This document shows positions 38,749-41,613 of a stretch of DNA of 63,956 nucleotides, one piece after another. The stretch spans positions 1 through 63,956 of the forward strand of contig DASWNF010000002.1 in assembly GCA_036399335.1 (NCBI GenBank), written 5' to 3'. Every line of letters begins with the position of its first letter. Positions within the stretch are counted from its first letter, which is position 1. The notes below the pieces were generated by a model, which saw nothing but the letters and a program-made list of their open reading frames with translations, was not told where the DNA came from and did no database searches. The position numbers and the translations under genes were made by a program. This stretch comes from Minisyncoccota bacterium (GTDB lineage: Bacteria > Patescibacteriota > Minisyncoccia > Phycocordibacterales > Phycocordibacteraceae).

Positions 38749-41613
38749 CTACGGTATGAGGTTCAGGATCCGGCCCGGACGATAGATTACCCGGCTTGGC
38801 TGCCCGCCCGGGAACAGCTCCCGCACCTTGGACACCAAAAGCGCAGCGGCAACGGCCTCAGCCTCGCTCGCATTGTGGGAAATGGTGATTTCCCCTCTTG
38901 TCTTGCCCGCAATTTGCACGCCGATGGTGACGGTATCACTTTCGAGGTGCCTTGCATCAAAGCTCGGCCACGAAGCCTTATGGATGGAACCGGCTTCCCC
39001 CAGCCGTTCCCACAACTCTTCGGTAATGTGGGGGGCGAATGGTGCGAGTATGCGGAGGAATGAGCTCCACTGCTCGCGTCCTATGGCGCGCTCCGCTTCA
39101 AGCGCATTGAGGAAGATCATCATCTGGCTGATAGCCGTATTGAACCTAAAGTTCAGGATGTCATCGCCGACTTTTTGGATGGCCTGGTGGAGCGGCTGCT
39201 CAAGTGCCGGGATGTGCTCATCTTGCACCCGGTCGCTTGCGCGCCAGACCCGGTCGAGGAACCTGCGCGAGCCGACCAAGCTCTTCGTATTCCAGGCGAT
39301 GGCATTCTCGAACGGGCCCATGAACATTTCGTATACGCGGAAGGCGTCAGCGCCGTACTCGGCGACGACGTCGTCAGGGTTTATGACGTTCCCGAAGCGC
39401 TTACTCATCTTCTTCCCGTCTTCGGCAATGATGAGCCCGACCGAATGGAGCTTCTTGAAGGGCTCAAGCGTCGAGACCACACCGATATCAAGCAGGAACT
39501 TATGCCAGAACCGCGCATAGATGAGGTGACGGGTCGCGTGCTCCGCGCCTCCCACGTACATATCAACGGGTGCCCAAAACTTCTCGGCCTCGGGAGAAAC
39601 GAGGGCTTCGGTATTATGCGGGTCCATATAGCGGAGGTAATACCAGGACGACCCTGCCCACTGCGGCATGGTATTGGTTTCGCGCTTAGCTGCGCCCCGG
39701 CACTTCGGGCACGCCGTGTTGACCCAAGAGTCAATGGCCGCAAGCGGGGATTCGCCTGTTCCCGTAGGCTCATAGTGCTCAACGTCGGGAAGCCGGACCG
39801 GCAGGTCCTCATAAGGCACGGGCACGACCCCGCACGAGCCGCAGTAGACAATCGGGATCGGTTCGCCCCAATACCGCTGGCGCGAGAACACCCAATCGCG
39901 AAGACGGTACGTCGTCGTCCTTCGGGCAAGCCCGTGTGCCTCGGCGTAGGCAACGATGTCCTCACGCGCTTCGGCGGGCACACGCCCCTTGAACTCGTCG
40001 GGTTCGGCGAGAATGCTGTTTTCCATGTCCGTCCAGCAGACTTCATTAAATAACTTCTTGAAGGCGTACTGGTGCGATACGGGCGTAAGGAACGGGGTCA
40101 TCTCTTCCTTCGTAAGCCAGCGGAGTTCGTGCTTCCCCTTCTCTTCGTGTGGGATCTCCTGCTGTTCACCGTCCTCAAGCTCTACGTAATACGTGGGCGC
40201 ATGCCCGAAGCGGTTCTGCTGCTTCGGGGCATGGTAGTACTTACCGTGTATGGTCCCGAGGCTCCGCGCAATGCGCGCGTGCACATATCCCGTTTCTTCG
40301 CGTATCTCGCGCAGCACCGTCTCCTCAGGACTTTCGCCGTCTTCAATACCTCCAGTGAGGAAGGTGCCCCAGCCGGCTTCAGGCCAGGTAAGCCCTAGGT
40401 ACTTCTCTTCGGACCAATGCTTTACGATAGCAATAACAGCATGGCTGTCGGCCACTGGCTCGTTCGGGCGGAATGCCGCAGTCCCGGTGTCTTGTACGAC
40501 AACCGGCTCGAGCACTTCCTTGAGCGGTATGCCGTACTTCTTGGCGAAGGCGAAGTCACGCTCGTCGTGCGCCGAGCACTTCACGATACCCGTGCCGTAT
40601 TCGGCGAGGGCGTAATTAGCTACCCAAATAGGCAACTCACCATTGCCGACCGGGTCGATTGTATAGCGCCCCGTAAATATGCCCACGGGCTCCTTCACCT
40701 CTCCGTACTTGTCTTCGGCGCGCTCGGCAGCCATGGCCGCGGCTTCGGCGAGTATACGCGGCGCTTCAGGCACGCCTTCGACGAGTTTGGGGAGGAGCGG
40801 ATGGTCAGGCGCGATGACGACGAACGTATCCGCCCGGAAGGCCTCGAAGTGCGCACTGAACGTCTCGAGCACCATGTCCGTGTCCTTTACGGGCGAGGTA
40901 AAGACAAGCCCTTCAGACTTCCCGATCCAGTTCCGTTGGGACTCCTTGATGTGCTCCGGCCAACCGTCGAGCGTGTCGAGGTCGGTGAGCAGGCGTTCTG
41001 CGTAGTCGGTAATCTTAAGCACCCACTGGGGGAGCTTCTTCTTGACTACAAGCGTGCCGCACCGCTCACAGCGGCCTTGGTCGAGGTCTTCGTTCGCAAG
41101 CCCTGTCATGCAGGACGGGCACCAGTTAATAGGCTCTTCCGAGCGGAAGGCGAGCCCGTGCTCGTAGAGCTTGAGGAATATCCACTGGGTCCAGCGGTAA
41201 TACTCGGGGTCGGTGGTATTAACTTCGCGGCTCCAATCGTAATCAAAGCCGATGCGCCCGAGCTGGTCCTTGAAGCGGGCGACGTTTTTCTCGACGGCTG
41301 CGCGCGGGTGCACCTTGTTCTTAAGCGCATAGTTCTCGGCGGGCAAGCCAAAGGCATCCCATCCCATCGGATGGAGTACGGACTTCCCTTGCATACGCAT
41401 GTGGCGCGCGTACACGTCAGTCGCGATATAGCCTTTAGGATGTCCTACGTGGAGCCCCTCGCCTGAGGGGTACGGGAACATGTCGAGGACGTAGCACTTT
41501 TCCTTCCCTTCTGTCTCCTGCGAGGCATAGAGGTTAGTAGTGCGCCATTTCTCCTGCGCTTTTTTCTCGAGTTCTTCGTGTTGGTACGATTCCTTAGCCA
41601 TAGCAATGCGCAC
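38749..41613 (-). CDS. leuS: leucine--tRNA ligase with inserted Nudix domain
   Basis: HIGH ([10 protein letters not shown]), KMSKS ([10 protein letters not shown]), RNWIGKSEG, a CP1 region (IAPDHPL...[18 protein letters not shown]) and [19 protein letters not shown]. 954 aa; ATG at 41613 or 41601. Confidence 0.9.
   Translation of the reverse strand: [954 protein letters not shown]
40039..40461 (-). other. Nudix hydrolase domain inserted in LeuS (about residues 385-525)
   Basis: Nudix box [23 protein letters not shown] (40285-40353) fits Gx5Ex7REUxEExGU. Confidence 0.75.

Follow-up and report, generated by a model that had tools for sequence, protein, structure and literature searches.

A predicted Nudix hydrolase domain nested within the editing domain of patescibacterial leucyl-tRNA synthetases

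Few enzymes have been studied as thoroughly as the aminoacyl-tRNA synthetases, and accessory domains in these proteins usually mark added functions. The bacterial leucyl-tRNA synthetases (LeuRS) with solved structures, from Thermus thermophilus (1H3N, 2BYT), Escherichia coli (4AQ7) and Neisseria gonorrhoeae (7NU3), have the same domain plan as the subject of this work, the product of a leuS gene located in a 63,956-nucleotide stretch of the genome of a Minisyncoccota bacterium (contig DASWNF010000002.1, assembly GCA_036399335.1; this whole stretch is hereinafter called the window). The similarity between the window protein and these bacterial LeuRS is highly significant (phmmer E-value of 5e-202) and extends over the HIGH and KMSK-type motifs, both zinc-knuckle motifs, the CP1 editing domain, and the anticodon-binding and C-terminal domains. 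Unlike these enzymes, however, the window LeuRS contains a predicted Nudix hydrolase domain nested within CP1, lacks the leucine-specific domain that is present in the Thermus and E. coli proteins, and has the sequence FSAHFEA in place of FTTRPDT.

The inserted domain shares the fold, the glutamates of the Nudix box and an aromatic residue 16-17 positions past the box with single-domain Nudix hydrolases such as 2AZW, 3I7U and the lupin enzyme 1F3Y (Foldseek E-values 1e-9 to 1e-8, profile E-values 1e-7 to 3e-6), but it is only 22-25% identical to these proteins, is embedded in another protein and has invariant residues of its own. A precedent for a class I synthetase with an extra catalytic domain is the fusion of isoleucyl-tRNA synthetase with a GNAT domain, which has been assigned its own annotation model (NCBIfam NF040702, ileS_w_GNAT); the case described here differs in the synthetase, in the added enzyme and in the nested insertion into the editing domain. 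The concept of house-cleaning nucleoside triphosphate (NTP) pyrophosphatases, which includes the MutT/Nudix and Ham1/RdgB ITPase families, was reportedly laid out by Galperin and coworkers in 2006. These enzymes are normally free-standing, whereas patescibacterial LeuS embed a Nudix domain and, in some species, also a Ham1, HAD or alpha/beta-hydrolase domain, which together form the classic repertoire of sanitizing hydrolases. Degenerate or missing editing sites are known in the human mitochondrial and Mycoplasma LeuRS; the CP1 of the window protein resembles these in lacking the canonical threonine-rich motif but differs from them in possessing a conserved variant of this motif and in retaining both editing-site aspartates.

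The LeuRS of the window and its Nudix insert

The gene in question encodes a genuine bacterial-type leucyl-tRNA synthetase of a patescibacterial (Candidate Phyla Radiation, CPR) genome, and its boundaries and the length of the product are exactly those given in an earlier, sequence-only reading of the window. The protein scores 923 bits against the NCBIfam model TIGR00396 (leuS_bact; cut-off of 548) and matches the Pfam domains tRNA-synt_1, LeuRS editing domain (residues 227-374), NUDIX (PF00293) and Anticodon_1. The sequence-only reading held that the landmarks of this LeuS are normal; this is the case for the HIGH signature, which reads HVGH, and for the anticodon-binding domain, whereas the KMSKS signature is a one-residue variant, KMSKR, and CP1 is non-canonical. 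An exact-sequence look-up of the protein returned no record, and the nearest LeuS among the species representatives, that of locus L020, is only 65% identical to it.

The Pfam NUDIX model matches residues 411-508 with an E-value of 1.6e-13 and a score of 51.2 bits, well above the cut-off of 21.1. In the alignment with the T. thermophilus LeuRS (1H3N), residues 369 and 533 of the window protein correspond to residues 363 and 381 of the Thermus enzyme, such that 146 extra residues, close to the 140 or so previously estimated, replace an 18-residue loop. The sequence-only reading placed the insert after CP1; the CP1 fold, however, picks up again past the Nudix insert, at residues 533-568, and the Nudix domain is thus nested within the CP1 editing domain, in a short surface loop. 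The location proposed for the Nudix box was correct, and the flanks quoted along with it map to residues 348-370 and 569-585. Compared with the consensus GX5EX7REUXEEXGU, the box contains G421, E427, R435, E436, I437, E439, E440, G442 and Y443, the only departure being the tyrosine in the final 'U' position, which is shared by 187 of the 214 copies of the subfamily. Outside the box, the subfamily has specific invariant residues, namely, a KHW motif, W410, W415, K464, N467, H495 and W499.

Structure modeling yielded a consistent picture. The full-length AlphaFold2 model, built from a 40-sequence alignment, has a mean predicted local distance difference test (pLDDT) score of 90.3 and a predicted template modeling (pTM) score of 0.81, with pLDDT values of 90-96 across the insert; in this model, the Nudix module is bordered, where it meets CP1, by strands 368-373 and 533-535. 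When the insert was modeled alone, the pLDDT reached 95.6, with helix 429-441 bearing the Nudix box. Foldseek searches with the whole model retrieved solved LeuRS structures with template modeling (TM) scores of 0.72-0.84, and the top 50 matches of the insert-only model were all Nudix enzymes, with TM scores of 0.6-0.7. The leading matches include 2AZW from Enterococcus faecalis, a protein of unknown function, the Aquifex Ap4A (diadenosine tetraphosphate) hydrolase 3I7U and a putative CTP pyrophosphohydrolase, along with MutT1/Rv2985, NudI, NudB and RppH. That the insert is a complete, well-formed Nudix domain, as proposed in the sequence-only reading, is supported consistently by the domain scans, by the predicted fold and by the conservation of the catalytic residues.

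Table 1. Features of the leuS gene and its product in the window
Feature	Positions	Strand	Residues	Remarks
leuS coding sequence	38749..41613	-		954 aa, stop codon within span; Pfam and NCBIfam
HIGH signature	41440..41451	-	55-58	Reads HVGH
CP1 editing domain, N-terminal part	40507..40935	-	227-369	Pfam PF13603, profile positions 1-146 of 185
Threonine-rich editing motif, variant	40840..40860	-	252-258	FSAHFEA; canonical FTTRPDT
AHDERD	40555..40572	-	348-353	Editing-site aspartates D350 and D353 kept
Inserted Nudix module	40018..40506	-	370-532	Predicted alpha/beta/alpha Nudix fold
Nudix box (23 residues)	40285..40353	-	421-443	Putative metal-binding E436, E439, E440
CP1 editing domain, C-terminal part	39910..40017	-	533-568	Aligned to T. 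thermophilus LeuRS 381-417
KMSKS-type signature	39397..39411	-	735-739	Reads KMSKR
Anticodon-binding domain	38863..39192	-	808-917	Pfam Anticodon_1

The start codon of leuS is ambiguous, with two candidates, GTG at 41613 and, at residue 5, ATG at 41601; the alignment with the Thermus LeuRS starts at residue 8 of the window protein. Immediately upstream lies a gene for a DUF5671 protein that stops at 41622-41624, 8 nucleotides before the GTG. The neighbors of leuS, at 32001-38582 and 41622-42566, are cell-surface-type proteins; the set comprises a CAP-domain protein, a protein with Ig-like and peptidoglycan-binding domains and another with GH18 and peptidoglycan-binding domains, in addition to a 203-amino acid protein without a Pfam match and the DUF5671 protein. 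Together with YchF, another neighbor, the DUF5671, GH18 and CAP proteins are in keeping with a patescibacterial origin of the window.

Distribution, insertion sites and histories of the modules

An exhaustive HMMER search with residues 340-591 of the window protein as the query against 1.84 billion cluster representatives returned 110 matches with E-values below 1e-30, and the query, consisting of the Nudix domain and both CP1 flanks, could be aligned end to end in 93 of the best 150 cluster representatives, most of which are LeuS of approximately 940-1200 amino acids. A locus search in the species genomes of GTDB was run with a 5-sequence alignment, and 80 loci were kept; at least 254 species genomes encode a relative. 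In approximately 73 of the 80 kept loci, the Nudix domain is located within the LeuS reading frame, and all 44 full-length LeuS from these loci match Pfam NUDIX together with all LeuS domains. Nearly all kept loci are labeled as Patescibacteria/CPR (for example, Adler-, Kaiser-, Taylor-, Nomura-, Colwell-, Jorgensen-, Vogel- and Moranbacteria), and many carry automated 'Saccharibacteria' labels. One locus, L057 (CAZSEK010000042.1), is labeled 'uncultured Methanosarcinales archaeon', but the LeuS-Nudix fusion that it encodes is of the bacterial type, and the contig is probably patescibacterial and mis-binned.

The fusion architecture is, then, frequent among the patescibacterial LeuS sampled, and the window protein is one ordinary member of this set. 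The impression in the sequence-only reading that this is not known as a standard LeuS architecture is not supported as worded: the architecture is not rare, and examples annotated plainly as leucyl-tRNA synthetase, such as KKP58971.1 and MBU6323229.1, have been in GenBank since 2015. A seeming rarity of the fusion, suggested by a word-index search with the insert that retrieved two free-standing Nudix proteins only, was a sensitivity artefact that was overturned by the exhaustive HMMER search. No paper describing a fusion of LeuRS with a Nudix domain came up in full-text literature searches. In a survey of domain insertions published in 2026 (PMC13114784), the LeuRS editing domain is assigned to the domains that occur solely as inserts and never serve as hosts, an assignment that the architecture described here contradicts. 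The LeuS-Nudix fusion is thus real and widely represented in public sequence data but apparently undescribed.

The Nudix subfamily was found at no fewer than three sites in LeuS, namely, at least at site A at the entry to CP1, site B, the CP1 loop that is occupied in the window protein, and site C, which follows the RDWxxSRQRYWG motif; some LeuS, for example, P0003, L012, L024, L034 and L040, contain two or three Nudix copies. Among 369 domain instances, the nearest neighbors belong mostly to the same class: 23 of 30 for site A, approximately 153 of 181 for site B, and 115 of 122 for the free-standing copies. Such clustering by site points to a few old insertion events, not frequent hopping.

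Free-standing genes of approximately 160 codons that belong to the same Nudix subfamily are abundant, and those that were checked do not adjoin leuS. At locus L064, a 161-amino acid Nudix gene (492-977) ends 2 nucleotides before a leuS gene (980-3218) without an internal Nudix domain; this pair is a split, operon version of the LeuS-Nudix fusion. There are also stand-alone proteins of approximately 275-289 amino acids that consist of the CP1 flanks and the Nudix domain and are encoded in unrelated gene neighborhoods. These proteins, exemplified by P0254 (L083:5001-5846), align to residues 348-554 of the window LeuS and do not adjoin leuS; their editing aspartate is degenerate (AHINKD), and they look like excised copies of the insert region of LeuS. 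Several 157-amino acid free Nudix proteins (P0159 and P0164; also L085:5001-5474) bear the name 'leuS' in NCBI records, presumably through annotation transfer from the fusions.

The Nudix domain is not the only hydrolase inserted into these synthetases. Some Nudix-bearing LeuS contain an alpha/beta-hydrolase (Ser_hydrolase) domain, which is found either at site A or close to site C, directly past the RDW motif; others contain a HAD phosphatase domain (HAD_2) at site C, and in one Nudix-bearing LeuS a Ham1/ITPase domain (E-value of 3e-58) separates the catalytic core from the anticodon-binding domain. The LeuS with extra hydrolase inserts include P0008, P0063, P0038, P0070, P0085 and P0037.

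The host domain itself is unusual. The canonical CP1 motifs FTTRPDT, GTGAxMAVPAHDxRD and NSGxFxG are missing from the window protein: FTTRPDT is replaced by FSAHFEA and NSGxFxG by AEPDEFKG, with (T/A)EPxEFxG as the general form of the variant, and the GTGAxMAVPAHDERD segment (residues 340-353, positions 40555-40596) is altered. The same variant CP1 is common to L020, L025, L031, L068, P0003, P0012, P0035, P0128 and P0149, and two of these proteins, P0128 and P0149, have the variant CP1 without a Nudix domain. The variant motif itself is kept across divergent lineages, with 66-77% identity in CP1 where the catalytic cores are 52-75% identical, and looks like a remodeled rather than a decayed editing site. 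A search with the variant CP1 segment matched short fragments only. The leucine-specific domain (Thermus residues 580-635), which usually lies ahead of the KMSKS signature, is absent from the region at positions 39397-39420 (residues ~730-739), residues 730 and 734 of the window protein being aligned with Thermus residues 579 and 636; the consensus of the related patescibacterial LeuS has the same short spacing and no such domain. The Nudix-less relatives, namely, the LeuS of L064 and, by alignment consensus, P0128 and P0149, likewise lack it.

Different parts of the window protein have different closest relatives. In the comparison with the LeuS of L021 and L004, identity amounts to 77-82% in the catalytic core but to no more than 41-43% in CP1 (82% and 43%, respectively, for L021); in the comparison with those of L068 and L025, it is 52-56% in the core and 66-69% in CP1 (52% and 69% for L068). 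The Nudix domain is nearest to those of L003 and L004 (57% identity), not to that of L020 (44%). These discordant affinities therefore suggest that the core, CP1 and the Nudix domain have had separate histories, with module exchange between leuS alleles.

Possible functions of the inserted domain

Of the 225 LeuS-embedded copies, 214 retain the box glutamates E16, E19 (replaced by Gln in 6 copies) and E20, as do 147 of the 150 free or short ones. Conservation of these putative metal-binding residues strongly indicates selection for catalysis, and the Nudix domain is probably an active Mg2+-dependent pyrophosphohydrolase. Two box subtypes can be distinguished: the canonical one, with E7 and R15, to which the window protein belongs, and one with Q7 combined with A, M, T or K in position 15, a pattern suggestive of covariation between these positions. 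The Q7 subtype accounts for about half of the free-standing copies, where it dominates, and for about a quarter of the embedded ones. The nearest Nudix relatives of the window domain, L003 and L004, have L or F in position 7 and K in position 15.

With respect to the substrate, the sequence offers a single specific hint, and a weak one. Tyr459 and Tyr460 occupy positions 16 and 17 past the box, where the subfamily consensus is F/Y; ApnA hydrolases typically contain a tyrosine 16-18 residues downstream of the Nudix box, as reportedly described by Dunn and coworkers in 1999, and the Aquifex and lupin Ap4A hydrolases show weak similarity to the insert (E-value of 1e-6, 25% identity). ADP-ribose pyrophosphatases have a proline 15-16 residues downstream of the box, and there is no proline at these positions of the window protein, which are occupied by K458 and Y459. 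In the NADH pyrophosphatase NudC, the N-terminal domain binds zinc and the box is followed by the SQPWPFPxS motif; this motif is absent from residues 444-532, and the matches to NudC and NUDT12 in the PDB searches are confined to the box. Assignment of a substrate by homology was attempted and abandoned, given that neither the sequence and profile searches of the PDB nor those with Foldseek and NCBIfam revealed more than generic Nudix similarity. The substrate would most likely belong to the class of small adenine or purine nucleotides, diadenosine polyphosphates or non-canonical NTPs.

We tentatively prefer, at a level of confidence somewhat short of probable, the interpretation that the insert is an autonomous house-cleaning pyrophosphohydrolase housed in an insertion-tolerant loop of LeuRS. 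Among the possibilities considered, this would provide the best fit because the domain occupies multiple positions, occasionally in multiple copies, has free-standing equivalents, is accompanied by other sanitizing hydrolases and conserves the catalytic residues. Under this scenario, the metal ions would be coordinated by E436, E439 and E440 of the Nudix helix, and a nucleoside-diphosphate-X compound would be cleaved. Because LeuRS is essential and expressed at all times, the hydrolase would always be available, at a constant 1:1 ratio to the synthetase; the arrangement would amount to obligate co-expression and tethering, without substrate channeling, and the Nudix domain would take no part in aminoacylation or editing. 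Tight geometric coupling to the LeuRS chemistry is disfavored because the domain is found at several sites and as a free gene, and because LeuS also hosts unrelated hydrolases.

Several points weigh against an autonomous house-cleaning role. No characterized Nudix subfamily is convincingly matched, the best E-values in PDB sequence searches being 1e-7 to 1e-6; the NCBIfam models for RppH score 18.5-20.1 bits against cut-offs of 116-259, and the MutT model TIGR00586 scores 19.2 bits against a cut-off of 97.9, in both cases far below the equivalog level. In the searches that were run, LeuS is the only fusion partner of this Nudix subfamily, and this exclusive fusion, the three or more separate insertions and the Nudix-leuS operon together hint at a LeuRS-specific link that a role of LeuRS as a pure carrier would leave unexplained. 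Furthermore, the word-based and pattern-based searches are biased, and the counts reported above are not a measure of prevalence within the phylum.

In the sequence-only reading, a direct link to the chemistry of the synthetase was proposed, with the Nudix domain clearing, at source, Ap4A, Ap3A (diadenosine triphosphate) or adenylate side products that LeuRS makes from Leu-AMP and ATP. The Aquifex and lupin Ap4A hydrolases and Rv2985/MutT1 are among the nearest characterized relatives, the aromatic Tyr/Phe pair is located 16-17 residues past the box, LeuS is the partner in every fusion found, and one genome has the Nudix-leuS operon. We nevertheless consider such coupling doubtful: the similarity to Ap4A hydrolases is weak and generic, the same domain occupies three distinct LeuS sites and is also encoded by free genes unlinked to leuS, the HAD, alpha/beta-hydrolase and Ham1 domains that LeuS also hosts are unconnected to Ap4A, and LeuRS is not known to be among the strongest Ap4A producers.

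In a more far-reaching interpretation, which we regard as unlikely, the patescibacterial LeuRS would serve as a platform on which hydrolases safeguard leucylation in cis. The Nudix domain nested in CP1 would act on a compound handed over by the editing domain or by the synthetic site, and its candidate targets would be a pyrophosphate-modified CCA end of tRNA-Leu or an inhibitor or by-product that mimics the adenylate, and the alpha/beta-hydrolase, HAD or Ham1 inserts of some species would do related work. The exclusive association with LeuS, the three or more independent insertion sites, the Nudix-leuS operon and the co-occurrence of an apparently remodeled CP1 are compatible with such a platform.

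An RNA-directed activity seems quite unlikely. Here, CP1, the natural binder of the tRNA CCA end, would present an RNA end to the Nudix domain for removal of a pyrophosphate-linked group; 3'-pyrophosphorylated tRNA and 5'-triphosphate, NAD or Ap4A caps are speculative candidates. This would be in line with the nesting of most Nudix copies in CP1 or next to it and with the weak matches to RppH and the decapping-type effector AvrM14, but the RppH scores fall far below the model cut-offs cited above (about 20 bits against 116-259), the free-standing copies have no RNA-binding partner domain, and some copies lie outside CP1, at site C.

A non-catalytic role, with the Nudix fold serving as a ligand sensor or as a structural add-on that, for example, offsets the missing leucine-specific domain, is very unlikely. 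The absence of that domain and the replacement of the structural E7/R15 pair in about a quarter of the embedded and about half of the free copies would accord with such a role; however, the metal-binding glutamates are kept in approximately 95% of the copies across lineages that are 35-60% identical, and the Nudix-less relatives, L064, P0128 and P0149, do not have the leucine-specific domain either.

Finally, a chimeric assembly, a frameshift joining two genes, or a recent insertion of a mobile element or an intein is practically ruled out because an independently assembled 13,335-base pair contig from a biocrust metagenome run covers positions 38500-41900 with 0 differences and 0 gaps, and the same architecture, including NUDIX, is found in all 44 tested species genomes; in addition, the insert does not stand out in GC content, no interruption breaks the reading frame, and the search for flanking repeats as a mobile-element signature turned up only short two-copy matches, which are often due to chance. 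The intein interpretation, specifically, was dropped given that the borders have no splice-junction residues and the domain is kept in the predicted mature fold. Accordingly, with the Nudix fold and the catalytic glutamates present and the assembly not chimeric, none of the three pitfalls considered in the sequence-only reading materialized.

Implications

The architecture described here is a case of double nesting, in which a predicted active pyrophosphatase is located in an editing domain that is itself inserted in the catalytic domain. It is found, together with other hydrolase inserts, in hundreds of species of a major bacterial phylum that is still poorly understood. At the practical level, the fusion is presumably the reason that public records misname free-standing Nudix proteins, such as P0159 and P0164, as 'leuS'. 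If the Nudix domain is only a passenger, ultra-small genomes would package house-cleaning enzymes into essential proteins. Coupling to LeuRS or tRNA would, instead, make the Nudix domain a new form of translational quality control. Should the possibility that LeuRS is a platform for protective hydrolases prove true, this would be a new type of aminoacyl-tRNA synthetase-embedded quality control or self-defense that goes beyond classical amino-acid editing.

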